Positions 21,312-48,535 of a stretch of DNA of 64,000 nt are shown one piece after another. The DNA comes from Thermoflexus sp. Lineage in GTDB: Bacteria > Chloroflexota > Anaerolineae > B4-G1 > SLSP01. The notes below the pieces were generated by a model. That model ran no database searches and had not been told where the DNA came from. It was given only the letters and a program-made list of their open reading frames with translations. The stretch is from the NCBI GenBank assembly GCA_020722365.1, contig DYKY01000001.1, positions 15,357-79,356 of the forward strand, in the 5' to 3' direction. Position 1 is the stretch's first letter, and each line of letters begins with the position of its first letter. Both the position numbers and the translations under genes were made by a program.

Positions 21312-22289
21312 TTACTGCACCGCAAATTGCACAAATCGTTGCATCCTGTGCTCGTCGCTCACACCGGCAAAGGCTTTCCGCAAAGCGGCATACGCCTCGC
21401 GGGTGATGTAGAGCGGTTTTGCCAGTTCCGCCTCTATAGCAGGTTCGGTAGGTTTCTCCCGGAGAACGAGGGCTGCATTGGCGCGTTCGATAATCGCCGC
21501 GCTGACCGTATCCGTGTGCGTATCACCCAGGAGTTCGTTGAGGATAAGTGCCGTCGTTGATGTGACCCACACGCGAATCAGGTTATTCTCGACTTCCTCG
21601 CCCTGTACACAGAAGTAATAGAGGTTAGGATCGTTCGGCGGCGGCACGTCGAAATAAGGCTGAATCTTCGCGCCCGCGCTGGTCGTAATGGAGTAGCGTT
21701 TGATGCCGGTTGCGTTCTCGTACACCCACAGGTTCTTGCTCGGTTTCCGGTTGCCGCTTCTGCGTTCGTGCCATTCCGCCCAGTAATCGTCTGGGTTGGG
21801 AGGCAGCATGTCCGTCTCGAAGTACAGGAATTCCACCAAGTCGCCTTGCCACAGCAGCCAGCCGGTGCGCATATCCGGTTCTGCATCAGGTGTGTTTTGG
21901 GCGACCCTTTGCCGCCGCTGCTCAATCAGGTCGGCATACTGTTGGAGAATCTCCCGCGCTATCACTGTCGGCTCCCCTTCGGTTGTAGGAATCCGGATAG
22001 AGCGCGTCGCCGCAGGGTGCATAAGTTGTGTTCCGCAGTATTCCTTTATGGATTTCCCTGACCTCACGCAGAGCATTTTGTGCTCCACGCCCAGCGCGCC
22101 GTGCATCACGTCTATGTGGAGATTGCTCCATCCTTCGTTGGGGATGCCCTTGGCGGCGCAGTAGACGTAGGCCCAATCGCCTTCCTCGAACTTCCGCCCC
22201 ATCATGACAGCAACTCTGGACGCGAGAAACCGGTGCGCCGCCGTTAGCTCGGCTGCCGAAAAGGCTGGACGTGTGTCTGGGCGTTTCAT
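21312..22289 (-). CDS. Type II restriction endonuclease (PD-(D/E)xK fold, candidate).
   Basis: Translationally coupled (ATGA overlap) downstream of a DNA methyltransferase. Candidate catalytic motif HIDVMHGALGVEHKM (D..E.K). Confidence 0.5.
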   Translation of the reverse strand: MKRPDTRPAFSAAELTAAHRFLASRVAVMMGRKFEEGDWAYVYCAAKGIPNEGWSNLHIDVMHGALGVEHKMLCVRSGKSIKEYCGTQLMHPAATRSIRIPTTEGEPTVIAREILQQYADLIEQRRQRVAQNTPDAEPDMRTGWLLWQGDLVEFLYFETDMLPPNPDDYWAEWHERRSGNRKPSKNLWVYENATGIKRYSITTSAGAKIQPYFDVPPPNDPNLYYFCVQGEEVENNLIRVWVTSTTALILNELLGDTHTDTVSAAIIERANAALVLREKPTEPAIEAELAKPLYITREAYAALRKAFAGVSDEHRMQRFVQFAVQ

Positions 22290-24247
22290 ATCATCCTCCC
22301 TTGACCACGTTGATTGGCGATTTCTGACCGCACAACATCTACGAGTATCTTACGGAACTCTTCATAACTGACGTCAATCATCTCTTCGGCCTCCAGCCGT
22401 GCTTTGAGCCACAGCGCATACAGCTTGCGGCTATCCACTTCATCTTCCCGTTCGACGTGCAGATAATGAACGACGAAGTCTTCAGGCGTTTGGGTGAGAG
22501 CGTTCTTCACAAACGCGCGGATCGCGGCTTTGGTCGCACCGTTGTTACGCAGGGCGGGCGCAGCAGAAGTTGTGTGGGCTTCTTTCTGACAATGGAGTAA
22601 CAAATCGTAACCAACAGCATTTGGCGAAACGAACTGTTTAAACGTCCCGTGCTTTTTGTCGAGCGTTTGGGTGGTCTCGATGCTGAAGCCGCTGGCGGCC
22701 AATGCTTGTTGGAGCGCCGCCCAGACTTTGGCCGACGAGTTGTGGAACATCACGGTGAGCCAGCGCCCCGGTTTGAGCACACGCTGCATCTCGCCGAACG
22801 CTTCCGTCATAAGGGAGCGATACTCGTCCAGCGATTTCCCCTGCACGCGGTTGATGATCGCCTCTTTCTCAACGTTTGTGAAGACGCCCAACCAGGATTC
22901 CCACAGGTAGTTCATCTCCGAATAGTTGATGTTGCCGCCAAAGGGCGGATCGGTGAAAATGTAGTCAATCGTACCGTCCGGTATGGCGCTCAAGTCCGTC
23001 GCGCTCTGCGTGGAGATACAGAACGGGCCAGCGGGCAACGGATTCCAGGTCGCAAAGTATTTCTGGATCGTCTTGGCCTTCCGTTCGAAGACCTGGAAGA
23101 CGTTCTGCTCGTTGAAAATCATCGGCACGTTGTAATTGGCGGTGTTGCTGCTGCCGCCCCAAAAGCGGAATTCCGACAGTTGCGTGACCCGCTGGTAAAG
23201 CGAGGTGACGGTGTACATCAGTTTCACCCCCTCCTCTGCGTCGGGCCAACGGCGGGCGATGTCCCACAAGCGCGCCATCACCCGCAGTTGCCGCGTGGTA
23301 TACAAGGCGTCAATCGAGGTCAGCCCGTGCGAAACCGGCTGCCGCGTGTTGAGTCCCGGTAGAAAGGCGTTGGTAGGATACCATAATTCTCCGGGGACGC
23401 CGTCCACCTCCAACGTCTTGAGCAGCGCCAGGTCGTGTGCATCGGGCGTGGCGGTGGACTCGCGCCGGTCGGAATCGCAACAATGATAGCCCACTTGCAC
23501 CGGATAGGGTTGCGTGCGGTGCAGATGGCTTTTTTTTAAGAGTTTGCCGCAATGAGGGCACGCGAATTCCGTCTTAATTTTGCTTTTGCGCACGTCGGCG
23601 TGTTCGTCGCGGGCCACGTCCCACAGCACGAATTCCTGGTGGCAGTGCTTGCAGAGCAAGCCATAACTCCACACCATATAGTTCATCGGTACCAGTTTAC
23701 CGCACGTGCGACAGTGTGTGCCGTATACCGTTAACGCCTCATCTGCCGTGGCCGCGAGAACGGCTTCGAACGCTGCTCTGTAGCGCGCCGCATCCATAGG
23801 CGTGACGAAGTTGAACGCAATAAAGGTCGCCGCCGGAGAGAGGTCTATGAGAATGGGGATACGTCCGGTTTGCAGCGCCGCCACGCCGGTCATCCCCGAG
23901 CCGCAAAACGGATCAAGCACCAGCCCTCCCGGCGCGGCGTAATGCTCGATCAAGCGCGCAATGGCCTGCGGTGGGACTTTAGTGTGATACGTGTGCGCGT
24001 CGTAGACGTATGTGTTCTTCCCCGCGACGAGTTCCTCGGGCAGCGGCCTGAGCGTGTACGTCGTCGGCGCGAGTGCGTGCTCACGAACAAACTCCGCAAG
24101 CGCGTCGTTCGCGCCAGGTGAATAGGCCCGACTCTCAAAGTCGCGCAGGGTGCGCGGCGCAACACGCAGGTCCAGCGCACGAGCATGCTCAATTTCGAAA
24201 AGGCGTGGCTGTGTAATCACATGCAAGGTCTCTTTCTTAAGTAGCAA
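22286..24247 (-). CDS. DNA methyltransferase (alpha-class N6-adenine/N4-cytosine type, probably m6A) with a Cys-rich zinc-finger target-recognition region.
   Basis: Motif I LDPFCGSGMTG near the N-terminus, motif IV FTDPPFGGN near the C-terminus, with CxxC...CxxC pairs in between. Confidence 0.7.
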   Translation of the reverse strand: MLLKKETLHVITQPRLFEIEHARALDLRVAPRTLRDFESRAYSPGANDALAEFVREHALAPTTYTLRPLPEELVAGKNTYVYDAHTYHTKVPPQAIARLIEHYAAPGGLVLDPFCGSGMTGVAALQTGRIPILIDLSPAATFIAFNFVTPMDAARYRAAFEAVLAATADEALTVYGTHCRTCGKLVPMNYMVWSYGLLCKHCHQEFVLWDVARDEHADVRKSKIKTEFACPHCGKLLKKSHLHRTQPYPVQVGYHCCDSDRRESTATPDAHDLALLKTLEVDGVPGELWYPTNAFLPGLNTRQPVSHGLTSIDALYTTRQLRVMARLWDIARRWPDAEEGVKLMYTVTSLYQRVTQLSEFRFWGGSSNTANYNVPMIFNEQNVFQVFERKAKTIQKYFATWNPLPAGPFCISTQSATDLSAIPDGTIDYIFTDPPFGGNINYSEMNYLWESWLGVFTNVEKEAIINRVQGKSLDEYRSLMTEAFGEMQRVLKPGRWLTVMFHNSSAKVWAALQQALAASGFSIETTQTLDKKHGTFKQFVSPNAVGYDLLLHCQKEAHTTSAAPALRNNGATKAAIRAFVKNALTQTPEDFVVHYLHVEREDEVDSRKLYALWLKARLEAEEMIDVSYEEFRKILVDVVRSEIANQRGQGRMI

Positions 24248-33851: not shown

Positions 33852-34940
33852 TTATTCACCGTTGCCGGGCCGGGCAAAAATCATCCTCCCGGCCGCCGTT
33901 TGCAGAATTTTGCTCACGGTCACGTCAATGGTTTGGCCGATAAAGCGCATACCCTCTTCGACCACAACCATAGTGCCATCGTCAAGATACCCCACCCCCT
34001 GATTCTGCTCTTTCCCGGCCTGGAGGACGTGAATCGCAAAACTCTCCCCCGGAAGCAGGACGGTCTTGACGGCATTCGCCAATTCGTTCACATTGAGCAC
34101 GGGGACGGCCTGAAGTTCAGCCACGCGGTTGAGATTGTAGTCATTAGTGAGAATGGAGCCGCCCATCTCTTTCGCCAGCGCGATGAGCTTATCGTCCACC
34201 TCGCGCACACCCGGGGCGTCGGCATCGGTGAGACGCACCGGCACAGGGGAGTCCTCCTGTAATCGTCGCAAGATTTCCAGCCCGCGTCGTCCACGATTGC
34301 GGCGCAATGTGTCGGCGGAGTCGGCCACGTGCTGCAATTCGTTCAACACAAACAGCGGTACAATCAATTCGCCCTGGATAAAACCGGTGCGACAAATATC
34401 GGCAATCCGCCCATCGATGATGACGCTGGTATCCAGCAACACCGCCGGTTTACATTGCGCTTCGGTTTCACTGACGGTGATAGCCGGGGGCTCGCCGTGA
34501 AAAATGCGTCCACGCAGGGCTTGTAACAGGTCGGGGCGCATCATTGCGATCGTCAAACCGATGTAGCCAAAGGCAGCCGCAACGATGAAAGGAAGAAACT
34601 GTCCCAGGGGCCGTGGCAGCAGTGATAGGGGGTAAGCTGCGATAGCGCCCAAAGCCAGGCCCAGGAACAAGCCCACCGTCGCCGAGAAGATGACATGCGC
34701 CGGGAGTTGTTGGATGACTCGACGCAGTCGAGTGAAAGGCTTCAGCGTCAGCCTTGGCATAAAGATGAAACCGAAAAGCGCCCCAATAACGCCGCCAGCG
34801 ATGGTGACGTAGAGGTGAATCGCTTGAGGAATTGAGGGAATTTGAACAATTTGAATGCCTAGTGCTGCTCCTGCCGAACCAAAAACAATGACACCGATGA
34901 TGCGGAGTATAAAGGTTATCTCCATAAATAATATCTCCAT
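33852..34940 (-). CDS. yacL: PIN/TRAM-domain membrane protein (YacL-like).
   Basis: N-terminal TM helices, central PIN (VLLDTSVIIDGRI) and a C-terminal TRAM-like beta domain. Sits immediately upstream of cysS, as in Bacillus. Confidence 0.65.
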   Translation of the reverse strand: MEILFMEITFILRIIGVIVFGSAGAALGIQIVQIPSIPQAIHLYVTIAGGVIGALFGFIFMPRLTLKPFTRLRRVIQQLPAHVIFSATVGLFLGLALGAIAAYPLSLLPRPLGQFLPFIVAAAFGYIGLTIAMMRPDLLQALRGRIFHGEPPAITVSETEAQCKPAVLLDTSVIIDGRIADICRTGFIQGELIVPLFVLNELQHVADSADTLRRNRGRRGLEILRRLQEDSPVPVRLTDADAPGVREVDDKLIALAKEMGGSILTNDYNLNRVAELQAVPVLNVNELANAVKTVLLPGESFAIHVLQAGKEQNQGVGYLDDGTMVVVEEGMRFIGQTIDVTVSKILQTAAGRMIFARPGNGE

Positions 34941-35175
34941 AAAGAGCAATAGTGGTAGCAATGAGATAGACATATAAATGCATTTTAAGTTGCTTACGGT
35001 CAATCTTAGCACGGTCATAAGAAAAGTCAAAACATTGACATTATCAAAATTTTCGCTATAGTCGAGGTTGAGATCGTTTGCAGGATAACCCATCCGAAAA
35101 CTCTCCATCGATTTGCCGGAAACGCCGGCAAGAAGAATTCTCGGATAGAGGCTTAATCTTTACAGGAGTGAGAAA

Positions 35176-35424
35176 ATGGCACGATGTCCCGAATGTAACA
35201 GCAAATTGGTCATCCCGCCTGATATAGCGCGGTGGGATCGTATTTTCTGCGAAGCATGTGGCACTGAACTCGAAGTTGTGGATGTCAATCCTCTGGAACT
35301 CGAGGCAGTCTACGATTTCGAGGATGACGACAATGCACTGGATGAGCTAGAGGAAGATGAAGACGATCTGGAATGGGAAGAAGAAGATGATGATGATGAT
35401 GAAGATGAAGAAGACGAATGGTAG
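35176..35424 (+). CDS. LysW-like zinc-ribbon protein with a ~40-aa polyacidic C-terminal tail ending in EDEW.
   Basis: MARCPECNSKL...FCEACGTELEVVDVNPLELE parallels LysW (CPECGAEL...CEDCGAELEVVGLDPLRLE). Then comes DDDNALDELEEDEDDLEWEEEDDDDDEDEEDEW. Confidence 0.5.
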   Translation: MARCPECNSKLVIPPDIARWDRIFCEACGTELEVVDVNPLELEAVYDFEDDDNALDELEEDEDDLEWEEEDDDDDEDEEDEW

Positions 35425-35466: not shown

Positions 35467-35502
35467 GAACAGGCCATCGAGATTTCGATGGCCTGTTCAT
35501 TT
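35467..35502. terminator. Intrinsic terminator after the LysW-like gene.
   Basis: GAACAGGCCATCGAgatttTCGATGGCCTGTTCATTT. Confidence 0.7.
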
Positions 35503-35517: not shown

Positions 35518-37152
35518 CTACATCGCCCGGCGTGATAGGAAGAAGAGCGCGCCCACAGCGACAGCCAGGATCACGACGATGATGCCGGTGATACGCAAAA
35601 CCGTGTTGAGCACGCGGGTAATGCTGCCAGGTTTCTCGGTATCGGCAGTGGTCTTGGCCGGTTCAGGCGTCCCAGAACTCTCAGGCTGGGTTTCGGCCTC
35701 CGCGGTAGCGCCCTCGTCCTGCGCGTAGCCCAGGTTGAGCGAAGAAACCTGCCCGGCGGTCAGAGGGATATTCCATTGTCCGGTATCGGTAAGTTTATAA
35801 CCAGAAGGCGGTGTGTGACGCAGAATGTAGTTGCCCGGCTCAAGGTTCTGGAAACAATAAGGCTCGGAGATTCCATCAGTTCTGTAGGTTCCTGCCGGCC
35901 CAGACATGCCTACGAGGGTGATTTCAGCATTCGGCAACGCCATCTCGCCCTCTTGCCGGAACATGTCGTTATTTTCGTCAAAATACGCCAGTACACACAG
36001 CGAAGTTGTATCACCGGCGGGTGCAGCCGGTAGACTGCCGGCAGCGGCAGGGGTTGCTGTTTCCGCGGGCGCCGGCTCAGTCGGTTGAACGGTCGTCTCA
36101 GGCTGCGTTTCAGGTGTTGTAGTGGGCGCAGCAAGCGGCTTCCCGGAGATGATCACTTCCTGACCGACAACCAGGAAGTCATCGATGACGGTGCCCGCAT
36201 TGAGACGCCGTAACTCGTCCAGGTCTACACCATACTGGATCGCCAGGCCGAGCATCGTATCGCCAGGAACGACAATGTGGACGACCGAGCCATCAGGCCG
36301 TGGCGTGGGTGTAGACTGTGGCACGATGGGGACAGGAGTAGGTTGCACCTCCGAGGTCGGCGGCGGGGGTTCGGGGGTTGACGTGGCAGGCGTGCCTTGC
36401 GAAACCACTTTCAAGATCATATTGTCCGTATATGCATCGTTGTGCGTGTTCGGCCATTTCCCAAAGGAATTCGTGAAGAATGTCACCGCACCGCTCGCGC
36501 CGACGGTAGCCTGTACCGGTCCCACCAACCCAAATTTGTCGTAGTGATAGTAGGGCGAACTCCAAACGATGTTAGGACTATAAGGGTCCGTGCCGCCGTT
36601 GGGGTCGATACCAACCCGAAAGTAGAAGGAATACGGATCGCCACAGGATGTAGCAGGCCCGCTAGATTCAGCACATGACCAGGCGTGAGCATAGTAAGAT
36701 GCTTCAACAACAGTTCCGGGTGCAACGTTGCGCACCACCTGAAAATGACCGGCGTTCTGTTTTCTACTATACGTAAAACACAAAGTGGCATAGTACCCAC
36801 TGTAAATGCGAAGTGGGTCCAAGAACGGTGGTTCTTTGGGAATGACTTTACACTCTGGGCGGCCATAATCGCCTTCCTGCCACCAGGTGACCCACCCCTC
36901 TGGTGTGTAAATTTCACCCCACTGCGTCCCGTTGAAGGTATCGCGCGTCCAGTTATTGGGGTTGGGCGAAGAATTGTCCATAGGCCGGCCAATCCCCTCA
37001 ATTCCTGGATTGACTAACAGGTTCGTGCCAATCTCTTGCTGCAGGGGCGCATTGAGCTCGCGTGCAGCCGCCAGTGGAACCAGAATCAGCGTGGACAAGG
37101 TGAGCGCCAATAACAACAGCGCCCCCAATCCTTTCAAGCTTTTCTTTCTCAT
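35518..37152 (-). CDS. Secreted, C-terminally membrane-anchored LysM-domain protein.
   Basis: Signal peptide. LysM core VVHIVVPGDTMLGLAIQYGVDLDELRRLNAG. Pro/Thr-rich linkers. C-terminal TM GIIVVILAVAVGALFFL. Confidence 0.6.
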   Translation of the reverse strand: MRKKSLKGLGALLLLALTLSTLILVPLAAARELNAPLQQEIGTNLLVNPGIEGIGRPMDNSSPNPNNWTRDTFNGTQWGEIYTPEGWVTWWQEGDYGRPECKVIPKEPPFLDPLRIYSGYYATLCFTYSRKQNAGHFQVVRNVAPGTVVEASYYAHAWSCAESSGPATSCGDPYSFYFRVGIDPNGGTDPYSPNIVWSSPYYHYDKFGLVGPVQATVGASGAVTFFTNSFGKWPNTHNDAYTDNMILKVVSQGTPATSTPEPPPPTSEVQPTPVPIVPQSTPTPRPDGSVVHIVVPGDTMLGLAIQYGVDLDELRRLNAGTVIDDFLVVGQEVIISGKPLAAPTTTPETQPETTVQPTEPAPAETATPAAAGSLPAAPAGDTTSLCVLAYFDENNDMFRQEGEMALPNAEITLVGMSGPAGTYRTDGISEPYCFQNLEPGNYILRHTPPSGYKLTDTGQWNIPLTAGQVSSLNLGYAQDEGATAEAETQPESSGTPEPAKTTADTEKPGSITRVLNTVLRITGIIVVILAVAVGALFFLSRRAM

Positions 37153-37413: not shown

Positions 37414-38352
37414 TCACTTGCCAACTTTTTGCGCATAGGTGGTGAAAAGGTCGCCCAGGTTGATCCGCAGCGCCACTTCGCGCAGTTTCAGCCACGTCAC
37501 CAGGCGCTCCAAAGGGCGTCCCACCAAGGGCAATAGCGCCGTCACCCGGCTCGCCAGATAACCCGCTTGCAGATAACGGCCCTGCGCCCCCATCCATCGC
37601 ACACGGAATCCGGCCTTGTTCAGCATAGCGACCAACGTATGGCGTGAGAAGTAGAACAGGTGCATTTCCATATACCAGGGCCAACGCCGGCCCATCAAGC
37701 GCGAGAAGAGGCTATCGATGTCCATCGTATGGACGACAAGCAGACCACCAGGTTCGAGCGCGCGCCACGCGGCCTGCAATGTACTGAATGGATCGGGGAC
37801 ATGTTCGATCACGTCCCACATCGTAACCACACTGAAATGACCGGCGGGAAAATCGGCGTTTTCGAGCGTGCCCAGGTGCATCTGCAGGCCCTGCGCGCGG
37901 GCTTGTTCGACCGCCCATGTGCTCGGTTCAATGCCCCAGGCATCCCACCCATGGCGCATCGCAATGTCCACAAAGACACCAGTATGCGCCCCCACATCGA
38001 GCAACCGACGCCCATTGGCGGGGCCGGTAAAGCGTTCCATAGGCCGCAGATGGTGTTCGAAGGTCAACACGCGCCCCTCGCGTTCTTCGACGTACAGGGG
38101 GTCTTGCACGGCTTCGTAGATGTCAAGCACCTCAGCGCTTTGCGGTCTGGGATCAGCATAGACAAATCCGCACTGGTTACATGCGACGATGGGGCCGTGA
38201 TAACCATAACCGCCACTGGTGCAAGCGTAGGAATTCCAGTCGGCATGCTTTTGGCGATCGAGGGTGGAAGGGATGCGCACCACGTAATCATCCGCCCCGC
38301 ACAGGTTACAGCGGATGTGCTCCAGCGGAGGCTCGGGTTCGAGGGACGTCAT
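37414..38352 (-). CDS. Class I SAM-dependent methyltransferase with an N-terminal zinc ribbon.
   Basis: CNLCGADDY...C..C pairs, then motif [12 protein letters not shown]. Confidence 0.7.
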
Positions 38353-39104
38353 GCCGCCTTCCCCAACAGGCGCATGCGGAAGAGACGCAGGACGGTATAG
38401 AGCGCCTTTACAATCTCGTTCCGCGATATTTTGGACACACCCTGTTGGCGGTTCTGGAAAATGATGGGGACTTCACCGACGTTCCAACCGGCACGTTGCA
38501 CCCGGTAAAGCATTTCGATAAGAAAAGAATAGCCGTTGGAGAAAATCTGGTCGAGGGCAATGGACTCTAACACTTGGCGGCGATAACAACGAAAACCGGC
38601 GGTCGTATCGTGCGCTTGCAGACCAAGTAACACCCGAGCGAAGGCGTTCGCCCCCCAGCTCAGCATCTTGCGGGGCAACGTACACTCGATGGCGGCGCCG
38701 CCCGGCACGTAGCGGCTGCCGATCACCAGATCGTAGCCCTGCCCAATCTTGGCAACCATATCGGGAATGTTTTTGGGCGGATGCGAGAAGTCGGCGTCCA
38801 TCGTGATGATGAGATCGTACCCGGCAGCGATCGCCTTGTGGAAGCCGGCAATGTACGCCGTGCCCAAGCCCAGCTTGCCGGCGCGGTGAATGCCATGGAC
38901 GCGGCCCGGATGCTCATCCGCCAGCCGCTCGGCGATGGCGCCGGTGCCGTCAGGCGAGTTGTCATCGACGATAATAACGTCAACGACAACGGGCAACGCG
39001 AGAAGCTGGGTGACGAGCGCTTCGATGTTCTCTTTTTCGTTATAGGTTGGGACGATGACGGTTGTTTTCATTGGTTTTTCCATAGATTTATTCAGGGAAG
39101 ACAA
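38349..39104 (-). CDS. GT2 glycosyltransferase, polyprenol-phosphate mannose/glucose synthase (Dpm1-like).
   Basis: [17 protein letters not shown]...[10 protein letters not shown]. Confidence 0.75.
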
Positions 39105-39487
39105 GTGAAACCTTGTTCGGCGAAATGACGGTCAAAGGTGAAAACCTGACGAATGCCTAAATGCCGCATCAGAGCGAAGCTGGTACAATCCACAAGGCTA
39201 AGCTGTCGTTGACGATGGGTCAGCAAAACATTCACCGCCAGATTGTGCATGTCAACGTCTATCCACTCGATATGGAGTGGGCCCAGCATATCTTCGTGCA
39301 GTGTCGCCACGGCATCCACGCCCAAGCGATGCTGCACCAAAGCCGTAGTCTCAAGCACAATGTAATTACTGGTAATGAACTGCGCATCCTGAGTTAGCCA
39401 CGTTCGCCAGGCTGCGCCCGCCGAAATGTGAAAACGATCCCCGCGATTCAAAATCGCCAGAAATGCAGATGTGTCAACGAAAATCAC
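39092..39487 (-). CDS. vapC: PIN-domain toxin VapC.
   Basis: [13 protein letters not shown]... PIN fold. 4-nt overlap with the upstream RHH gene. Confidence 0.7.
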
Positions 39488-39747
39488 AGCGCGGCATCCT
39501 CGTAAGCTTGTACCAGATAGAGATCGTGATTCTCTGCCAAATCGGGCAGCTCACTATGATAGCGTCCCACAGCCGCAATAGCGCGACGCCGGCGTTCATC
39601 CGAGGAAACCACCACCTCGCGCTTAGTCTGCAACAGCATATCCACCGCCTCGCGCACCAGTTCGGCTACGGCGACTTGATAGTGGGCCGACAATTCTTTC
39701 AGCACGCGATATTGTTGTTCTTCCAACTGGATTTGGGTACGGATCAT
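39484..39747 (-). CDS. vapB: Ribbon-helix-helix antitoxin (VapB/CopG-like).
   Basis: MIRTQIQLEEQQYRVLKELSAHYQVAVAELVREAV is an RHH pattern. Confidence 0.6.
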   Translation of the reverse strand: MIRTQIQLEEQQYRVLKELSAHYQVAVAELVREAVDMLLQTKREVVVSSDERRRRAIAAVGRYHSELPDLAENHDLYLVQAYEDAAL

Positions 39748-39932
39748 GGCACTCCTTGCTATGATAACATGCTTACACTTTTGCCATCATGATACCATAA
39801 ATACTCGAGACTACATAGCTACTACCGCTCTCCAATATTGAATGCATGACACAGTATGCATTGTAACGTGTTGGGGGAATTCGGCAAGGAGGGAATTATC
39901 AAGACATGCAAGTGGTATGTGAATATGGTGCG

Positions 39933-40742
39933 TCATCGGTTTAGCCGTCGGTACAGAGGAAGCATCAGTCTCAATAACCATTGAGAAACTCGTCCATAAT
40001 GTTTGGCATAGAAATATATCAGACTATCATAGTAAGCGTTTTGTGCTTTTGGATTCTTCTTTAGGCTCTGTCCACCTAAGTGAACAATCTCAACCTGGGG
40101 ATTGTAATATACTTTCCAACCGGCCTTGCGGATGCGCAAACACCAATCATTATCCTCGAAGTACATGAACATATTCTCATCCAGCAATCCTGTCTGTTCG
40201 ATGGCGGCGCGACGCGCCAGCAGACACGCGCCGGAAACCCAATCTACGGGTTGTGTTTGTTCCGTCGCCCAATCGTGGAGATGACGGTGCAAGGCCACTT
40301 GGTTGAAACCACGCCGCAGTAGATAACCCGGCGTAGGATCGCCGCCAAAAGCGTAGGGCTGCGGCGTCCCATCCGGGCGTAACAGGCGTGGACTGACGGC
40401 GCCGGCTTCCGGGTGGGTGTCCATAAAGCGCACCAGGGTGCGCAACGATCCCGGTTTGACGATGGTATCGCTGTTGAGCAGCAAAATGTAGGATACATCT
40501 GCGTTGACGGCGCGAATCCCCAGATTGTTGCCGCGCGCAAAGCCCAGGTTTTCCGCACTGCGGATAAGTTGCACGTCCGGGAAGTCGCGCGCGACCATGT
40601 CGGCGCTGCCGTCGGTGGAGGCGTTGTCTACGACGATGATGTGGTAATCCAGGCCGGCCGCGCCGTCCGGGATGGAGTGCAGGCAGGCGGCGAGGAGGTC
40701 GGCGGTGTTCCAGGAGAGGAGGAGGAGGGCGAGGGTTGTCAT
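39933..40742 (-). CDS. GT2 glycosyltransferase (rhamnosyl/galactosyl-transferase-like).
   Basis: LSWNTADLLAACL...IIVVDNASTDGS, DxD-containing GT-A fold. Confidence 0.7.
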   Translation of the reverse strand: MTTLALLLLSWNTADLLAACLHSIPDGAAGLDYHIIVVDNASTDGSADMVARDFPDVQLIRSAENLGFARGNNLGIRAVNADVSYILLLNSDTIVKPGSLRTLVRFMDTHPEAGAVSPRLLRPDGTPQPYAFGGDPTPGYLLRRGFNQVALHRHLHDWATEQTQPVDWVSGACLLARRAAIEQTGLLDENMFMYFEDNDWCLRIRKAGWKVYYNPQVEIVHLGGQSLKKNPKAQNAYYDSLIYFYAKHYGRVSQWLLRLMLPLYRRLNR

Positions 40743-41680
40743 GAGGGTTGCGCTTTATGGGCGCTCAGCACATAAGTTTCGCCACGTACCCCTATGTGTT
40801 GGACCAACCAATCGTCCAGTTTACGCAACCGCCGGGCCAGTTTGATTTCGCGTTCACGTGAACCAAGCCGGAGATGACCGGCTACTACATTGGCGAACGC
40901 CTGGGGGGTTTGGTAACTTTCCACGACAAAATGTTGGCGAATGAGGTCAATGGCCTCCGAGCCGGTAATATCTTCAAAAGGCGAGCGGGGCGGCAGAACA
41001 AAAGCGGCCGGCGCTTGACGGTTAGGAAGAAGATATTTGTAAACTCGCGCCATCAAACGGTTGAAGATGTGCAGGGGCTTGCGCCAATAAGGGACTTCGG
41101 TGGGGAGGATGAACAAGAAAAAGTAGCGCAATAAGCGCCCGGCGAGCGAAGGTTCCATGTGATCCAGACAAATCAACGCGCCGCCGGGTTTCAGGGATTT
41201 TTCGATTTGCGCCATCAGGCTGGGCAAATCCAACACGTGGTGGAACGCCGCGATTGCCAATACCACGTCATAGGTATTCGCCGCCAATCCTAGCCGATTA
41301 AGATCGCCCACAAACAAGTTGACCGCGCCGGGCCAATGTTCAGCTTGATGGCGGGTCGCAATTTGCCGCATACCTTCTCGCACCAACCCCCAGGAAATAT
41401 CTACTCCATCTACACGGCAGCCCCGGCGGGCTAACTGGATGGCAAGATCGCCACTGGCGCAGGCCAATTCCAGGATATGTTTCCCGCGCGCCACCGCCAG
41501 GTCGAGGGTGTGCGCAAGTAGGTCCCCGGCGACGACCGCGGCCAGTTCTGGATCCCGCGTCGCAGCCAGACTCATATCTACCTCGCCACGCGCCCGACGC
41601 TCCCAGAAGTCCGCTTCTTGACGGAGCATTTCGTAGTATGCAGGTGTACCAATATCGTCGGTTGAGATTTTGTTTGGCAT
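40739..41680 (-). CDS. Class I SAM-dependent methyltransferase.
   Basis: Motif I ILELACASGDLAIQLA. Confidence 0.65.
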   Translation of the reverse strand: MPNKISTDDIGTPAYYEMLRQEADFWERRARGEVDMSLAATRDPELAAVVAGDLLAHTLDLAVARGKHILELACASGDLAIQLARRGCRVDGVDISWGLVREGMRQIATRHQAEHWPGAVNLFVGDLNRLGLAANTYDVVLAIAAFHHVLDLPSLMAQIEKSLKPGGALICLDHMEPSLAGRLLRYFFLFILPTEVPYWRKPLHIFNRLMARVYKYLLPNRQAPAAFVLPPRSPFEDITGSEAIDLIRQHFVVESYQTPQAFANVVAGHLRLGSREREIKLARRLRKLDDWLVQHIGVRGETYVLSAHKAQPS

Positions 41681-41702
41681 AAGCCTTCCTTAAATTGGGA
41701 AA

Positions 41703-42857
41703 TTATCCGGCATTGATAAGCTGCAAAATCGTAGTGACGCGCTGCTGCCAATCGTGGGCAGCCGCCACAGCCTCCGCTTGCTGATGGAAAACGCAGGCTG
41801 CGGTATTCTGGGCAACCTGGAGGGCGGCGGCTACCCATGCCTGGGGTGAATCGGCCAGCGTACACCAGTCCGCATAACGGGCCAGTTCTTGCGTTGCCGT
41901 CGCCACAACCGGCACTCCCGCCGCCGCATATTCAAACAACTTAACGGGGTTCACGGCCTGTGTCAATGGCCCTATTTTAAACGGGATCAAAGCCACATCG
42001 AAGCCGGCCAGGTATTCGGGCAATTGGGTATAGGGGCGCGGCCCCAGGATATGCAGATTAGCCGGTAATGAGGTGGGTGGGGGGATTTCCCATGGGCCGA
42101 TAACAATCACACTGCTATGCGGGGCAGCTTGCGCCAGGGCCATCATGCTGTCTAAGTCAGTCCACGGCCCAATGGTCCCAATGTAGCCGAAACGCGGATG
42201 CGGGTAGGTCTGTAGATCGGCAGCTTCGGTCAACCCGGCGCGCGCACGGGAAAAATGTGCTACATCCACACCGTTTGGAATCAGGTGGGTGTTGGCATTG
42301 ATCTGGCGGCATTTTTCTAGCAGGGGCTGTGCTGTCGCCAGTACGAGATCGGCGCGGCGGAGTAAATCGCGCTCCATCGCGGTGATGAGGGCGTGTTCCT
42401 GTCCGCTGAAAAAACCAGGGTAGTTATCCATGCAATCGAAGACTACCCGGCGCTCATGCAAATGGCCCATAAGATCAACATCGGTGGGGAAAGACAGCCA
42501 GAGCAAGGGGGCGGAGATAGCCAGGCGGCGCATGATCGGACGTAATTGAGCCGCCAACCACCGCTGATTCAGGCGGTTAATGTTCCGCGCCCGACGGCTA
42601 AAGGGCAAGGCCGGGGCAGGAGTGAAGAGCCACAAGGATTCACCCAATGACTCCAGGGTGGGTCGCCAACGCCGTCGCGTCGTTTGGCGCATCGTTCGCC
42701 AAATGTGCGTGGCAAAGGAGTAGCTGACCGGATTTACATACAGGACCCGGTGGGTCGCAGCCAGCCGTTCGGCCAGATGCTGTGGGCGTTGTTTGATGCT
42801 GCGCCAATCGTTGACGCCACAAAAAACGATGTCATTCATACGCGCGGCCCAGCCCAC
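41703..42857 (-). CDS. Glycosyltransferase, GT-B fold (GT1/GT4-like).
   Basis: Length and C-terminal GT-B pattern. Tentative. Confidence 0.5.
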   Translation of the reverse strand: MGWAARMNDIVFCGVNDWRSIKQRPQHLAERLAATHRVLYVNPVSYSFATHIWRTMRQTTRRRWRPTLESLGESLWLFTPAPALPFSRRARNINRLNQRWLAAQLRPIMRRLAISAPLLWLSFPTDVDLMGHLHERRVVFDCMDNYPGFFSGQEHALITAMERDLLRRADLVLATAQPLLEKCRQINANTHLIPNGVDVAHFSRARAGLTEAADLQTYPHPRFGYIGTIGPWTDLDSMMALAQAAPHSSVIVIGPWEIPPPTSLPANLHILGPRPYTQLPEYLAGFDVALIPFKIGPLTQAVNPVKLFEYAAAGVPVVATATQELARYADWCTLADSPQAWVAAALQVAQNTAACVFHQQAEAVAAAHDWQQRVTTILQLINAG

Positions 42858-43975
42858 CAGTTTTCAAGTATATCTACAATACGTTTTGCGGTCTGACCGT
42901 CGCCATACGGATTGCTGGCCTGGGCCATCGCGCTATAGGCGTGTTGATCGGAAAGCAGATGGGTGGTTTCCCTGACGATTGACTCCGTATCTGTGCCCAC
43001 CACGCGCAGGGTGCCGGCGGCAATGCCCTCAGGACGCTCGGTAACGTTGCGCAATACCAGCACCGGCTTTCCCAGACTTGGCGCTTCTTCCTGAATGCCG
43101 CCCGAATCGGTGAGAATCAGATAGGCGCGTTGCATCAGATGAACAAACGGTTCGTAATCCAGCGGCTCGACCAGGTGGACGCGCGCGACCTGGCTTAACT
43201 CGGCCTCCACGATTTGCCGCACAACCGGGTTTTTATGGACGGAAAAAACTATAACGATATCGTTGAAAGCCTGCACCAACTGCCGGATGGCTGCGCAGAT
43301 ATTCCGAATAGGTTGGCCCCAGTTTTCCCGGCGGTGGGCCGTGACCAGAAGCACGCGTGCTCGATCAAAATTCAGGCTATTCAAAGGCGCGGTATCGAAC
43401 GTGTAAGGACGGTGTGCGACGGACAAAAGCGCATCAATGACAGTATTCCCGGTAACGTAAATGTGGGCGTCGGGTATATTTTCGCGCAAGAGGTGCTCGC
43501 GGGCTGCTGGTGTAGGCGCAAAGTGCAGGTCGGCCAAAACGCTGGTGAGCCGCCGATTCATTTCTTCCGGGAAGGGTTGGAATTTGTCGTAGGTGCGCAA
43601 ACCCGCCTCGATGTGGCCGATGGGGATTTTGAGATAGTAAGCTGCCAATGAGGCCGCCAAGACTGTCGTTGTGTCGCCTTGCACCAACACAATGTCGGGG
43701 CGCTCTGTTTCCAGAATCGGCTTGAGGCTCAGCATGGCCTGCGTCGTGATCTCGAAGGGGCTTTGTCCGGCGCGCATCAGGTCTAAATCGTAATCGGGCG
43801 TGATGGCAAACAGGCGCAAGACCTGATCGAGCATCTCGCGGTGTTGCGCAGTAACCACCACAACCTGGCGCAAGCGGTCGGGGCGTTGGGCGAGGCATTG
43901 AATGACCGGCGCCATCTTAATGGCCTCGGGGCGGGTGCCGAAAATGGTCATGACCTTAACTAACTTTGACAGCAT
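42836..43975 (-). CDS. wecB: UDP-N-acetylglucosamine (or UDP-2,3-diacetamido-hexuronate) 2-epimerase, non-hydrolysing (WecB/WbpI family).
   Basis: MTIFGTRPEAIKMAPVI N-terminus and full-length epimerase_2 pattern. Confidence 0.8.
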   Translation of the reverse strand: MLSKLVKVMTIFGTRPEAIKMAPVIQCLAQRPDRLRQVVVVTAQHREMLDQVLRLFAITPDYDLDLMRAGQSPFEITTQAMLSLKPILETERPDIVLVQGDTTTVLAASLAAYYLKIPIGHIEAGLRTYDKFQPFPEEMNRRLTSVLADLHFAPTPAAREHLLRENIPDAHIYVTGNTVIDALLSVAHRPYTFDTAPLNSLNFDRARVLLVTAHRRENWGQPIRNICAAIRQLVQAFNDIVIVFSVHKNPVVRQIVEAELSQVARVHLVEPLDYEPFVHLMQRAYLILTDSGGIQEEAPSLGKPVLVLRNVTERPEGIAAGTLRVVGTDTESIVRETTHLLSDQHAYSAMAQASNPYGDGQTAKRIVDILENWWAGPRV

Positions 43976-44894
43976 ACACCTCCAGAGTATGTCCCAGCCC
44001 GGCCATTTCCAGAGGGCTTAATGCCATCTCTTTCAATCGAATCAGGGCTTGGATGGGTGCACTTTGCAAAACGGGTGCTGGCTTACTGATTCCAGGGTGA
44101 GACTGAGATACCGCCGTAGCTACAGAGGTGTTCTTACCAAATATCCGACGAAATGAAGGGTCAACTTTGCGGGTGCGAATATGGGATATTCGAAAACCGG
44201 CAGATTTCAACGCAAATGTAAGTGTCTGGGGTGTAAAGAAGAGCAAATGTTCCCTTGATACATGATAGCCATACCAATCTGGCCCTTCTTGACGCGCGCG
44301 CAGACTGGCGGCATTAGGCGTCGAAAGGGCAACAACGCCGCCGGGTTTAAGGATCCGCGCTATTTGACCGAGTTCATCAAGTGGAGAACGAACATGTTCG
44401 ATTACTTCCCACAAGGTGACAACATCCACTGATGCATCAGGCAAATCTGCTGTTTGCAAAGTTCCGCCGATGACGTCCAATCCAGATTCGCGCGCTATTT
44501 TAACTGCCGGCGCAGATAATTCGACCCCCAACGGTTGCCATCCCGCTTTACCAGCAAGTAACAAAAACCTGCCAAACGCACATCCCACATCCAATAGTGT
44601 GCCGCGTTGCGGGTGCAAGCGAGCAAGCTCATGAAGCCGATCCTGTTCCACTTTTGAAGCAATAAGCGGGCCAACCTTGTAGATTGAATAGCCAATCTGA
44701 GTTCCTACATGGGCTTCGAAGTAATCTGCTTTTTGGTAGATAGAATTCAATGCTTCTTCTGAAGGAAATGGATGAACACAACAAAGTGAACAGTTACAGC
44801 AACGAACAATCGTCCGTCCATCTGTTTCCCGGACTATGAGTTCGGCTTTATTTCCGTTACATAGTACACATGAAAATGTTGATTCTATAGCCAT
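43956..44894 (-). CDS. Class I SAM-dependent methyltransferase with an N-terminal Cys-rich zinc ribbon.
   Basis: CVLCNG...CCNCSLCC, then LLDVGCAFGRF. Confidence 0.7.
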   Translation of the reverse strand: MAIESTFSCVLCNGNKAELIVRETDGRTIVRCCNCSLCCVHPFPSEEALNSIYQKADYFEAHVGTQIGYSIYKVGPLIASKVEQDRLHELARLHPQRGTLLDVGCAFGRFLLLAGKAGWQPLGVELSAPAVKIARESGLDVIGGTLQTADLPDASVDVVTLWEVIEHVRSPLDELGQIARILKPGGVVALSTPNAASLRARQEGPDWYGYHVSREHLLFFTPQTLTFALKSAGFRISHIRTRKVDPSFRRIFGKNTSVATAVSQSHPGISKPAPVLQSAPIQALIRLKEMALSPLEMAGLGHTLEVYAVKVS

Positions 44895-44896
44895 CT

Positions 44897-46192
44897 CTAT
44901 TCTGCTATCTCGGTTAGAACTGTCGCAAGTCGCCGGGTAAGCATACGCCGATCAAAACGGGTCAACAACGTCTCCGATGAGCAGTAGTCATCAGGCTGAG
45001 TATACACCGTTTCAAACATCGTTAACAATGCCTCGGCAATGGCAGCGGCGTCATCTGGCAGGGCAACTGTGCCAATTTGTTCCTGAGCAACAATGTCGCT
45101 AATCAGGCCAGACGGCGCCAGCGCCAGAATGGGGCGGCGGGCTGCCAGGTATTCGAAAAACTTGTTCGTAAACGTCATGCGCGCCAATTCTGTGTTGGGC
45201 AAGACAAGCAACAAGACGTGAGCCTGGCGCATGGTTGCGATGGCTACATCATGCGTGACAAAACCGGCAATATCCACATAATTTTCCAGTCCTTTGAGCC
45301 GGGCATGGTAATCAGGCGCAATCTGCCCAACAAATCTAACTGACACAGCGTTGCGAAAATCGGCACTTTGCTCTAACGCCAGTCGCAATCCTTCTGGGAA
45401 GGCGTTATTCACTTGTGGGCCGAGAATAGTCCCTGCATACGTTATCACAAACTTGTTACCCGTCACGGGTGGCGGCGGGCCGATAAAATCTTCCGGGTCA
45501 AAGCCATTGGTGATGGTGAGACATTTTGAGGCCACTTGCGGCCCGAAAACTTGCTGGGTTTGCTGCATCAGAGGTTCTGTGACCATCACCGCGCGGTCAC
45601 AGGTCTCTAGGATCCGTCGCTCGATCCGGCGCTGGCGCGCAAAGTGCCCGCCGCCCAGCGCGCGCAATGCCGGGTTCCCTACCGTCCAGGCATCCCGGAA
45701 GTCGGCCACCCACGGCAACCTATGATGTATGTGCAATTTATGTCCAATCAGATGCACAGAATTGGGGGGCGACGTTGTCAGCAGCGCATCACATGGGAAT
45801 TCTTGCAACGCCTGTAGGCAGGTTTGATAGGCTTTTTCAACCCAAAGCACGTTGGTGTCGGGGACGAAAGCCCGGCGCAACGCCTGCACGAGATGTTGTT
45901 TGCCGCGCGCGCCTTTCCCTGGTTTACCAGACGGTTCCGCGATCGGTAGGGCCGTTTTTGGGGAAGGAGGGCGTATCATCTGTAGCCACTTCGGCCATCC
46001 TACTCGATAAACTGGCAGACCTGATGGTATATCCCGGACGAGACTTTCATCCGGGTTCCAGTCTGTATCTGAACACACCACTACCGGCTGCCAGCCAAAT
46101 TCCGGCAGGTATTTAGCAAATTTGGTCACGCGGATGGCGCCGGTGCCACCTTGTGGGGGAAAGTCGAAGGAGACGATCAGAACGCGCTTCAT
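44897..46192 (-). CDS. GT4-family glycosyltransferase.
   Basis: GT-B fold with E..E C-terminal motif. 431 aa. Confidence 0.6.
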   Translation of the reverse strand: MKRVLIVSFDFPPQGGTGAIRVTKFAKYLPEFGWQPVVVCSDTDWNPDESLVRDIPSGLPVYRVGWPKWLQMIRPPSPKTALPIAEPSGKPGKGARGKQHLVQALRRAFVPDTNVLWVEKAYQTCLQALQEFPCDALLTTSPPNSVHLIGHKLHIHHRLPWVADFRDAWTVGNPALRALGGGHFARQRRIERRILETCDRAVMVTEPLMQQTQQVFGPQVASKCLTITNGFDPEDFIGPPPPVTGNKFVITYAGTILGPQVNNAFPEGLRLALEQSADFRNAVSVRFVGQIAPDYHARLKGLENYVDIAGFVTHDVAIATMRQAHVLLLVLPNTELARMTFTNKFFEYLAARRPILALAPSGLISDIVAQEQIGTVALPDDAAAIAEALLTMFETVYTQPDDYCSSETLLTRFDRRMLTRRLATVLTEIAE

Positions 46193-47391
46193 GATATCGC
46201 AAACCCTTCTCGCAACCGCCGCGCCGCCTCATGCAGCGTGACTTCTTTCTTGGCAAAATTGAAGCGCACGCGGGTTCTGCCCCCTGAACCGGCGTAGAAA
46301 CTCGATCCTGGCACTACCGCGACGCCAACCTCACGCGCAATGTATTCGGCGAAGGCCCGGTCGTTACTCCATTCCGGCAAATACGTCTCGCCGCGCTGCC
46401 AGGTCAAGTCGCCAAAGTCGGCCATCACGTAGTAAGCGCCTTCGGGCCGGCAATAGGGCATTGCGGCCGCGTCCAGCGCTGCCAGCAGGAGCTCACGGCG
46501 CGCGCTATATTGCGCTCGCATATCAACATAATAGGATTCCGGCAAGCCCAATGCGACACAGCCGGCCGCTTGAAAAGGCGCGGGGGCGCACACGGTGAGG
46601 TAATCATGGACTTTGCGAATGAGCGCAGTCAACGGTTCAGCCGCCACTGCCCAACCCACCCGCCAGCCGGTCACGGCATACGTCTTCCCCAGGCCGCAGA
46701 TGGTCACTGTGCGATCCTGCATCCCCGGCAGGCTGCCAATGCTGATATGGCGGCGTCCATCATAGAGAATGTGTTCGTAGATTTCATCGGTGACGGCGAT
46801 TACCCCAAATTCCTGGCACAGCGCCGCGATGGTTTCTAATTCGGGTTGGGTGAAGACCCGTCCGGTAGGGTTGTGAGGGGTATTGAGCAAAATTAGCCGG
46901 GTGCGCGTGTTAAATGCCGCGCGCAGTTCATCTGGATCAAAGGTGTAGGTCGGCTCGCGCAAAGGCACAAAGCGTGGGCGCGCGCCGGCCATCTGGCAGT
47001 CAGGGACATAATTTTCATACCAGGGTTCCAGAATGATGACTTCGTCGCCGGGTTCGGTCAGGGCCAGCAGCGTTGACATAATGGCTTCGCTGACGCCACA
47101 TGTCACCGTGACCTCGGTTTCGGGATCGGCCGGGATGTGATTGTAGCGGGCCGATTTCGTGGCAATCGCTGCGCGAAAGTCCGGTGAGCCAAACGGGAAG
47201 GTGTATTGGTTGTCGCCGCTCTGAATGGCGGTTACCGCCGCGGCCAGGACCGCCGGCGGGGAATCAAAGTCCGGCAGTCCTTGCGATAGATTGACGGCGT
47301 CGGTTTCGTCTCCCAGGCGCGTCATCTCCCGGATGACGGATTCCTGGAAGGGCGCAGTACGGCGTGAGAATGGCTTGTGCTGGATGCTCAT
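46189..47391 (-). CDS. PLP-dependent aminotransferase, class I/II (AspB/methionine-aminotransferase-like).
   Basis: Fold-type I pattern with the PLP lysine in ICGLGKTYAVTGWRVGW. Confidence 0.7.
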   Translation of the reverse strand: MSIQHKPFSRRTAPFQESVIREMTRLGDETDAVNLSQGLPDFDSPPAVLAAAVTAIQSGDNQYTFPFGSPDFRAAIATKSARYNHIPADPETEVTVTCGVSEAIMSTLLALTEPGDEVIILEPWYENYVPDCQMAGARPRFVPLREPTYTFDPDELRAAFNTRTRLILLNTPHNPTGRVFTQPELETIAALCQEFGVIAVTDEIYEHILYDGRRHISIGSLPGMQDRTVTICGLGKTYAVTGWRVGWAVAAEPLTALIRKVHDYLTVCAPAPFQAAGCVALGLPESYYVDMRAQYSARRELLLAALDAAAMPYCRPEGAYYVMADFGDLTWQRGETYLPEWSNDRAFAEYIAREVGVAVVPGSSFYAGSGGRTRVRFNFAKKEVTLHEAARRLREGFAIS

Positions 47392-47406
47392 ACGCTCCTC
47401 CCCCGC

Positions 47407-48510
47407 TCAGGCGTAAAATTGGCGGATGGTTTCGATCACATAGGCGACGTTTTCATCACTGATTTCAGGGTTCATGGGTAAGGAAACGACCTCACGACAG
47501 ATCGCTTCAGTTTCAGGACACTGCGGCGTCTCTAGCCCCAACCCCTTGTGTTCCCACATAGGCTTGGGCCAGTGAATCAACGTTTCAACGCTATTTTCTT
47601 TGAGATGGCTGACCAGCGCGTCCCGCTGCGGTGTGCGGATGACGTAGTTCTGATAAATGTCGTGGTAGGCGTCGCCCGCAAAATGCGGCAAGCGTAAGTC
47701 GCCCACGTCAGACAAGCCGTCCCGGTACAACTCGGCCACTTCTCGCCGGCGCATGAGCCATTGCGGCAGATGGCGCAATTTGACATCCAACACCGCCGCG
47801 TGCAGATTGTCCAGCAAACAGGAGAAACCGTGATAGTGATACTCGCCAGTCTCGCGGTCTTCGCCGTTGTAGCGCAGGCGGGCGATCTTGGTGGCGATTT
47901 CTTCGTCATCCGTGGTGACGATCCCGGCGTCGCCCAACGCCCCCAACACTTTGAAAGGATAAAAGCTGAAGCAGCCGGTCAATCCGAAGGACCCGGCCAT
48001 TTTGCCTTTGAACGTTGCGCCCAACGCCTGGGCCGCATCCTCAACGACGATCAGATTGTGCTTTGCCGCAGCCGCCATCAGTCGTTCCATATCGCAGATG
48101 CGTCCGTTCAGGTGGACGGGCATCACGGCTTTGGTTTTGGGGGTAATAGCGCGCTCCATAGCATCCATGTCCATGTTGTAATCTTCGGTTACATCCACCA
48201 ACACCGGGGTTGCTCCTACCAGGACAATGGCCGATACGCTGGCGACAAAGGTGTGCGCCGGCACAATCACTTCGTCGCCTGGCCCAATCCCGGCGGCGAT
48301 CAGCGAAAGGTGCAGGGCGTGAAACCCGCTATTCAGGCCCACGGCATAGCGTGTCCCGACGAAATCGGCCAGATTTTGTTCAAACTGCTTGAGGTCTTTG
48401 CGATAAATCAAATCGCCTCGGCCCAGCACATCCTGAATTGTGCCATCTATTTCGGCCTTCATGCGTTGGTAATGGACATTGGGTTCAACAAAACGGACTT
48501 TGTAAGCCAT
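47407..48510 (-). CDS. DegT/DnrJ/EryC1/StrS-family sugar aminotransferase.
   Basis: GDEVIVPAHTFVASVSAIV and PLP-Lys region. Start at the internal Met MAYKV. Confidence 0.75.
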   Translation of the reverse strand: MAYKVRFVEPNVHYQRMKAEIDGTIQDVLGRGDLIYRKDLKQFEQNLADFVGTRYAVGLNSGFHALHLSLIAAGIGPGDEVIVPAHTFVASVSAIVLVGATPVLVDVTEDYNMDMDAMERAITPKTKAVMPVHLNGRICDMERLMAAAAKHNLIVVEDAAQALGATFKGKMAGSFGLTGCFSFYPFKVLGALGDAGIVTTDDEEIATKIARLRYNGEDRETGEYHYHGFSCLLDNLHAAVLDVKLRHLPQWLMRRREVAELYRDGLSDVGDLRLPHFAGDAYHDIYQNYVIRTPQRDALVSHLKENSVETLIHWPKPMWEHKGLGLETPQCPETEAICREVVSLPMNPEISDENVAYVIETIRQFYA

Positions 48511-48535
48511 TGGGGTCTCCTCGTTCTGCAAAATT

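Follow-up and report, generated by a model that had tools for sequence, protein, structure and literature searches.

The gene described here lies in a 64-kb stretch of a Thermoflexus sp. assembly (GCA_020722365.1, contig DYKY01000001.1; the whole stretch is hereafter the window). It encodes an 82-aa protein (MARCPECNSKLVIPPDIARWDRIFCEACGTELEVVDVNPLELEAVYDFEDDDNALDELEEDEDDLEWEEEDDDDDEDEEDEW) that joins an N-terminal LysW-fold zinc ribbon to a long polyacidic tail, and the tail stops at Trp in place of the reactive Glu of amino-group carrier proteins (AmCPs). The coding sequence runs from ATG to TAG at 35176..35424 on the plus strand, stop included, and is supported by the list of open reading frames (ORFs), by the ratio of non-synonymous to synonymous substitution (dN/dS) and by orthologues in ∼50 species. 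A first-pass annotation had regarded it as a single orphan; as judged from its relatives, it is one member of a conserved, Anaerolineae-wide family in which the C-terminal Trp is almost invariant. We tentatively suggest that the family may have put a carrier fold to use as a non-covalent binding protein.

The N-terminal domain is a genuine LysW-fold zinc ribbon of the Cys4 type (residues 1-43, 35176..35304, plus strand; Cys at C4, C7, C25 and C28), and the likeness to LysW claimed in the first-pass annotation is confirmed by four methods. The protein matches the Pfam model PF21344 (Zn_ribbon_LysW) with E 1.7e-11 and 44 bits, against a cut-off of 27, and phmmer searches of PDB chains recover LysW at E 2.7e-6 (T. 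thermophilus LysW, 3wwl) and 9.1e-6. A profile of the family aligns to 18 canonical LysW sequences with 99% probability in hhalign, over residues 1-46 only, and ribbon identity to canonical LysW is 39% over 38 columns. When the AlphaFold2 model (pLDDT 81-89 in the ribbon, ∼58 in the tail) was compared with the PDB by Foldseek, the top six matches were all LysW chains (root mean square deviation 1.0-1.6 Å over 36-39 residues), taken from complexes with LysY, LysZ, LysX or ArgX. The four Cys are invariant in 32 aligned family members. Also retained in the ribbon is the acidic ELEVV/PLELE surface, the part of LysW that is believed to engage basic patches on its partner enzymes.

LysW carriers are defined by three to four Zn-binding Cys together with an EDWGE motif, which the ligase reads through a GSWGR motif of its own; attachment takes place at the terminal Glu, which is essential, the E54A substitution abolishing function and causing auxotrophy (PMC10433800). 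In LysW/ArgW the gamma-carboxyl of this Glu holds the substrate, alpha-aminoadipate or glutamate, loaded by LysX/ArgX. The core of canonical LysW measures 53-62 residues, and each of the 27 sequences that we inspected ends in EDWGE. The window protein ends ...EEDEW-stop, with neither EDWGE nor a terminal Glu; the reactive Gly-Glu is missing because the chain halts after acidic-acidic-Trp. Its scores against the curated models TIGR01206 (30.9 bits, cut-off 53.2) and NF041070 (27.9 bits, cut-off 75) both fall short, and no NCBIfam or Pfam model covering the whole protein was found. Given the missing terminus and the scores under both cut-offs, the window protein has the LysW fold yet is no LysW/ArgW carrier by these tests. 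The canonical LysW profile has no counterpart of the family tail, the hhalign alignment ending at residue 46. Descent of an internal LEW[DE][DE] motif in the tail from the ancestral EDWGE was considered and set aside as not demonstrable, since the profile-profile alignment does not extend past that residue.

The tail comprises residues 44-82 (35305..35421, plus strand; delimited by alignment and the AlphaFold2 model) and is polyacidic, as first reported: 28 of its 39 residues are D or E (72%), the computed charge of the protein at pH 7 is about -33, and the tail is predicted to be disordered. Hydrophobic anchors Y46, F48, L55 and L58 are conserved within it. The codon of the C-terminal residue, Trp82 (TGG, 35419..35421, plus strand), is followed immediately by TAG, and 49 of the 50 distinct family sequences from genomic loci are likewise Trp-ended, with D or E preceding the Trp in 43. 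A second Trp, Trp67 (35374..35376, plus strand), occupies a nearly invariant column inside the internal motif L-[ED]-W-[DE][DE], which is kept in most family sequences; only L052 and L062 among the 50 lack a Trp inside the tail. Around these fixed points the tails range from 30 to 60 residues and from 58 to 72% D/E, and the spacer from the internal Trp to the C-terminus ranges from ∼6 to 36 residues, so that the tail is conserved by composition and not by position. A fixed Trp on a tail of variable length is the pattern expected when short anchor motifs are carried by a flexible linker. In the thermophilic (Thermoflexales-like) subgroup, additional Trp/Phe anchors occur (LEWEEEEEWEEEDLFDEDLEEEEEW). 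At the DNA level the tail (35305..35421) is a microsatellite-like run of GAA/GAT/GAC, and triplet slippage probably explains the free variation in tail length among species.

A word-indexed search of 5.8 billion proteins found 45 relatives, and the close ones are all labelled as proteins of Anaerolineae or Chloroflexota metagenome-assembled genomes (MAGs), either ‘hypothetical’ or auto-named LysW. A pattern scan of one genome per GTDB species found the family in 50 species, all of them Chloroflexota/Anaerolineae MAGs, Thermoflexales included. Five Asgard-archaeal matches (L063-L067) were discarded as unrelated basic zinc ribbons that share only MARCPEC. Taken together, these sequences define an undescribed LysW-fold subfamily restricted to the Anaerolineae. 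The dN/dS values of 0.03-0.12 against close orthologues (codons 1-66) indicate that the gene is real and under strong purifying selection. Invariant alignment columns are M1, A2, C4, P5, E6, C7, D21, C25, C28, E31, L32, E33, P39, L40 and E43, and nearly invariant ones are R3, L11, V34, L42, V45, L55, D56, L58, W67 and W82. Phage relatives were sought by tblastn without a match, the sole plasmid match was a canonical Deinococcus LysW, and PADLOC returned no defence-system match for the protein or its two neighbours.

Compared with LysW/ArgW (TIGR01206, K05826; PDB 3wwl, 5k2m, 3vpb), the family has the same Cys4 zinc-ribbon fold, the same ELEVV + PLxLE signature, and the same layout, in which an acidic globular surface leads into a flexible, likewise acidic C-terminal arm with a Trp in it. 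The LysW/ArgW arm, however, is ∼10 residues long and ends in EDWGE, whereas that of the family spans 30-60 residues (39 in the window protein) and ends in [D/E]-Trp; the family also has distinct conserved surface residues (MARCPEC, RWDR) and is never found beside lysX/Z/Y/J/K in the loci examined. A HMMER search of 1.84 billion representatives with the family profile returned 1052 at E < 1e-3 and 68 at E < 1e-10, and the details that follow rest on the 150 matches listed of those 1052. Eleven of these are single-ribbon sequences whose 40-60-residue acidic linkers still end in W-x-E, and because such sequences exist, a long acidic linker is compatible with the canonical end. They include proteins labelled LysW in IMG (P0222, P0245, P0247, P0267), which likewise consist of one ribbon and a 40-60-residue poly-D/E linker and share ∼40-50% ribbon identity with the family, but keep a D/G-W-[DEGN]-E end with terminal Glu. 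On these comparisons, what distinguishes the family is its Trp terminus and not its long acidic linker. Twenty sequences among the matches listed are Trp-ended, 12 of them outside the family; a C-terminal Trp in 12 of the 142 non-family matches, vs ∼1% expected by composition, makes it seem a recurrent solution among non-canonical LysW-like proteins.

The reading that we favour, though we put it at somewhat less than an even chance, is that of a ‘dead carrier’, a binding protein that docks on a basic partner without covalent chemistry and plugs or tethers it. In such a protein the amino-group-carrier fold would have been repurposed, the zinc ribbon being kept as an acidic docking module for a basic protein surface, and the short reactive EDWGE arm would have given way to a disordered polyanionic arm of 30-60 residues bearing the internal Leu-Glu-Trp-acidic motif and an obligatory C-terminal [D/E]-Trp. 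Once the ribbon had docked, the flexible acidic arm could sweep a basic groove, such as a nucleic-acid-binding or juxtamembrane surface, until the Trp side chains and the terminal carboxylate entered hydrophobic pockets, with the outcome that the partner would be plugged, tethered or regulated. Candidate partners may be sought among enzymes of nucleic-acid metabolism, LysW-dependent enzymes and the basic cytoplasmic segments of envelope proteins. The fold, the pattern of anchors with spacers of free length, the purifying selection and the missing carrier hallmarks and ligase neighbours are observed; the absence of a covalent bond, the kind of partner and the effect on it are what we infer.

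Disordered polyanionic tails are used elsewhere as mimics of nucleic acid on basic surfaces, for example in SSB (...DDDIPF), T7 gp2.5 and gp4, and the delta subunit of Firmicutes RNA polymerase, and in SSB and gp2.5 the last aromatic residue with its free carboxylate is the key anchor. Those tails sit on OB-fold or other domains, whereas the family tail sits on a LysW ribbon, and the likeness is an analogy in which no homology is expected. A precedent for Trp anchoring is YacG (PF03884), a small Cys4 zinc finger with an unstructured two-Trp tail, in which Trp40 and Trp59 dock in gyrase pockets and DNA binding is blocked (PMC4083091). YacG serves as an analogy only: its tail is short and mildly acidic, its Trp are not C-terminal, and no gyrase link was seen for the family. 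Pfam gave 27 matches to the window protein at E ≤ 1, and the best 25 of them do not include PF03884.

Some considerations weigh against a non-covalent binding protein of this kind. The neighbours of the gene are envelope genes (LysM, sortase with a tail-anchored basic protein, class A penicillin-binding protein (PBP)) and not nucleic-acid enzymes; a long acidic linker is by itself compatible with carrier function, given the 40-residue linkers that end in W-x-E; and a ligase may be encoded elsewhere in the genome. The first of these turns on the genomic neighbourhood.

Both genes that flank the LysW-like gene in the window are on the minus strand. Upstream is a divergent gene for a YacL-like membrane protein with PIN and TRAM domains (33852..35108, minus strand; Pfam PIN/TRAM, YCF81_N). 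Most of its homologues align from about residue 60 and some close relatives from residue 10-50; this ORF is probably over-extended at its 5′ end, with a true start near 34,93x, and the intergenic region would therefore be ∼240 nt. Downstream is a convergent gene for a 544-aa LysM + SdrD_B/SpaA-like protein, secreted or anchored (35518..37152, minus strand; Pfam). Because both flanks are on the minus strand, the gene is divergent from its upstream neighbour and convergent only with the downstream LysM gene, and its first description as lying between convergent genes was imprecise. Related genomes usually have SurA-like, GNAT, rlmB, cysS and YacL-like PIN/TRAM genes together on one strand; the LysW-like gene follows on the opposite strand, and beyond it a convergent gene encodes a LysM/SdrD_B protein of ∼545 aa.

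Neighbours were counted at the 50 species loci, 46 of which were informative; the other four had too little downstream DNA. The convergent LysM gene lies 67-264 nt downstream at 38 of the 46, including lineages in which the upstream PIN/cysS block is replaced. At seven others the convergent gene encodes an 81-86-aa tail-anchored protein with a polybasic N-terminus and a C-terminal transmembrane (TM) helix, followed in six of the seven by a sortase, and a single locus has neither neighbour. The sortase found beside the tail-anchored protein has a basic cytoplasmic N-terminal extension of ∼100 aa. The same tail-anchored and sortase arrangement occurs in further metagenomic loci, with no fewer than five different contexts upstream. 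Throughout the thermophilic clade the gene and that of the tail-anchored protein are convergent (L033, L038-L040, L044, L047, L068, L071-L080, L084-L086, L168-L172), and a sortase comes next except in L036; a prepilin peptidase follows in L068 and L069. The N-terminus of the tail-anchored protein reads MSKK.RRR..TRPRLS, and the protein has no Pfam or NCBIfam match. At L081/L082:4798-8252, a more distant W-acidic LysW-like gene (…DDDEWEEEDWEEED) stands directly downstream of, and co-directional with, a gene for a 1016-aa class A PBP, and is convergent with a WD40 protein gene.

How far the LysM neighbour reflects function was assessed with a metagenome scan seeded by the LysM protein alignment. 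Of the 61 informative LysM-family loci only 22 had the small gene, which was missing beside most LysM homologues at 35-45% identity, and one distant lineage (L164:4506-5830) had LysM, PIN/TRAM and cysS with a ∼250-nt gap that held no LysW-like ORF. This suggests that an older syntenic block has gained or lost the small gene, and, in view of the 22 of 61 loci and the L164 gap, its adjacency to LysM and PIN appears to be largely inherited synteny. The same observations weaken the case for a two-gene module that includes the LysM protein, and the LysM adjacency says little for a functional partnership. In the thermophilic clade, linkage with the tail-anchored protein and sortase is more robust to rearrangement, yet it too is an adjacency of convergent genes. 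The PIN/TRAM neighbour was considered as a target of antitoxin-like inhibition, which became less likely: it is replaced in several lineages in which the small gene persists.

These neighbours raise an alternative that we regard as unlikely, namely that the protein is a cytoplasmic partner of envelope machinery whose polyanionic tail binds polybasic segments, linking a signal in the cytoplasm with the anchoring of surface proteins or with work on peptidoglycan. Candidate targets would be the MSKK-RRR N-terminus of the tail-anchored protein, the basic extension of the sortase and other envelope proteins. The convergent LysM/SdrD_B genes, the tail-anchored protein with or without sortase, despite its varied upstream contexts, and the class A PBP gene upstream of the more distant relative all speak for such a role. 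However, convergent genes are not co-transcribed, the LysM family extends well beyond the association, L164 keeps the block without the gene, and the cytoplasmic tail of the LysM protein is only 4-6 residues long.

A second alternative is that the protein is a genuine AmCP of some other pathway, with a ligase encoded elsewhere that loads the alpha-carboxylate of the terminal Trp, a tail Glu, or an enzymatically added Glu. RimK-family ligases are able to act on alpha-carboxylates, the LysW fold and its acidic docking surface (ELEVV, PLELE) are kept, the terminal [DE][DE]W matches residues one to three of EDWGE, and other LysW-like proteins join very long acidic linkers to a canonical W-x-E end. 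Nevertheless, we consider this quite unlikely. The terminal Glu is essential in the characterized carriers (E54A is auxotrophic; PMC10433800), 49 of 50 members stop at Trp, and the scores lie under the curated cut-offs. Nor is there a pathway nearby. No ATP-grasp, AA_kinase, Semialdhyde_dh or M20 domain was found among the 40 scanned window proteins of at least 219 aa and the two flanking genes, and no ligase or pathway gene occurs within ±10 kb at the ∼46 informative species loci. The absence of lysX/lysZ/lysY neighbours reported for the window holds at these loci as well. Six-frame translations of the window and of 1.2 Mb of related loci were also searched with regular expressions; neither an ORF ending in EDWGE nor a real LysX motif turned up. 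The suggestion of a carrier for a different pathway, made in the first-pass annotation, is accordingly disfavoured: EDWGE and terminal Glu are lacking, scores are below the cut-offs, and the gene is never beside a ligase in the loci examined. A decoy, a chaperone-like protein and a DNA mimic, the other roles suggested there, are candidates. Streptomyces-type AmCPs of secondary-metabolite clusters differ in the same respects, having a terminal Glu and LysX/Z/Y/J homologues in a biosynthetic cluster, whereas the family lacks the Glu and has housekeeping and envelope genes for neighbours and no biosynthetic cluster.

It is also improbable that the protein is a non-reactive decoy or regulator of LysX/Z/Y/J/K, one that would occupy their docking surface and EDW pocket and so hold back the synthesis of lysine or ornithine. 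Such a role is supported by the retained fold and acidic-acidic-Trp tip and by the presence of the pathway in the genus: the PMC8129789 supplement gives a contiguous lysW-lysX-lysY-lysZ-lysJ-lysK-LYS21 cluster for T. hugenholtzii JAD2 and 100% for KEGG module M00031 in most Thermoflexus MAGs, with at least one K05826 entry. The acidic paralogue is present in a Thermoflexus sp. MAG (L038) and in Thermoflexales MAGs. Coexistence with a canonical lysWXYZJK cluster is thus shown at genus level only, since the cluster is that of T. hugenholtzii and the paralogue that of MAG L038; at that level it fits a paralogue beside a canonical carrier. T. hugenholtzii itself was not returned by the pattern scan that found the 50 species, and the thermophilic-clade members were located in hot-spring metagenomes and MAGs but not in the JAD2 genome. 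A search for Anaerolineae LysW with canonical T. thermophilus LysW as the query gave matches only in Thermus, Deinococcus and other lineages. Further against a decoy, the gene is never linked to lys genes in the loci examined, and its tail is three to six times longer than a LysW-type active site requires.

A general polyanion, acting as a Zn/Ca/Mg buffer or as a non-specific ‘electrostatic chaperone’ for basic proteins, would suit the extreme charge, the disordered tail and a strong consensus-like promoter (see below), but such a molecule needs no invariant C-terminal Trp, no LEW motif and no conserved ribbon surface (M1-A2-R3, W20-D21-R22), and we find it very unlikely. There is only a slight chance that the C-terminal [D/E]-Trp is the site of new covalent chemistry in a carrier or tag system of the Anaerolineae, performed by an enzyme encoded elsewhere through ligation on the Trp alpha-carboxylate, or through an enzymatic extension that could regenerate a W-x-E end, in a pathway taken to be envelope-linked because of the persistent LysM, sortase and PBP neighbours.

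To our knowledge, every LysW-type carrier described so far serves as a covalent swinging arm, in pathways to lysine, arginine and some secondary metabolites; if non-covalent binding proves true, the family would show clearly how a carrier fold can be turned to another task. Uncharacterized small acidic proteins with a zinc ribbon are common. Small non-canonical proteins of LysW type are numerous, and some bear the automatic label ‘lysine biosynthesis protein LysW’, which can mislead pathway reconstruction in Chloroflexota MAGs. Once the partner is found, a function could be assigned to a gene conserved in a large class of bacteria, most of them uncultured.

The gene is a monocistronic unit with its own promoter and terminator. 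A sigma-70-type promoter (TTGACA-16-TATAGT, 11 of 12 consensus positions) lies at 35035..35062 on the plus strand, identified by promoter scan and by conservation, and a ribosome-binding site read in the sequence (AGGAG, 35164..35168, plus strand) precedes the ATG by 7 nt. Where eight related genomes are aligned, the flanks diverge but the two promoter hexamers are kept, as is a palindrome that overlaps the -35 hexamer (GTCAA-N4-TTGAC); the ribosome-binding site is conserved as CAGGAG/GAGGGG. Repeated GTCA half-sites near the promoter (35010..35062) are conserved in the eight genomes along with the palindrome, and together they are possibly an operator. The window gene and that of L017 carry an extra insert of ∼80 nt in the 5′ untranslated region, with a GCCGG-AAAC-GCCGGC hairpin. 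The terminator of its own that the first-pass annotation assigned to the gene corresponds to a GC-rich hairpin with a 14-bp stem between the convergent genes (35467..35498, no strand assigned), which folds at -42.5 kcal/mol (z = -4.4 vs shuffles) and is an intrinsic terminator, possibly one that works in both directions. An Rfam search of 34.0-37.5 kb of the window gave no relevant match. GC content at third codon positions is 0.42 in this ORF vs 0.6-0.8 in neighbouring genes.

Several further observations concern the LysW fold, the neighbours and the remainder of the window. Many proteins of 120-140 aa (P0146-P0169 and others) have two tandem LysW-type ribbons and Lys/Arg-rich tails, some of them Trp-ended, and at L087:7787-9072 (also L088 and L089) four tandem genes for LysW-like zinc ribbons of 57-68 aa, with no ligase nearby, are another non-canonical expansion of the fold. 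The LysM/SdrD_B protein has a near-invariant C-terminus, GG[VI]T.VLN.VLR[IV][ST]G.IV..LA.AV..LF.LSRR, in ∼40 species (L004-L062); the order of motif, TM helix and basic cluster (a TM-LSRR anchor) looks like an undescribed sorting or anchoring signal. A long polysaccharide/glycan biosynthesis cluster occupies 37414..61688 on the minus strand, with glycosyltransferases, methyltransferases, UDP-GlcNAc 2-epimerase, DegT-type aminotransferases, a Wzx-like flippase and UDP-glucose dehydrogenase. A stand-alone sortase gene, its product without the long N-terminal extension, lies 24 kb from the LysW-like gene (10514..11413, minus strand). At 20202..24247 (minus strand) an N6/N4 DNA methylase gene stands beside that of a 325-aa protein without a Pfam match, with a YacP-like NYN protein encoded beyond.

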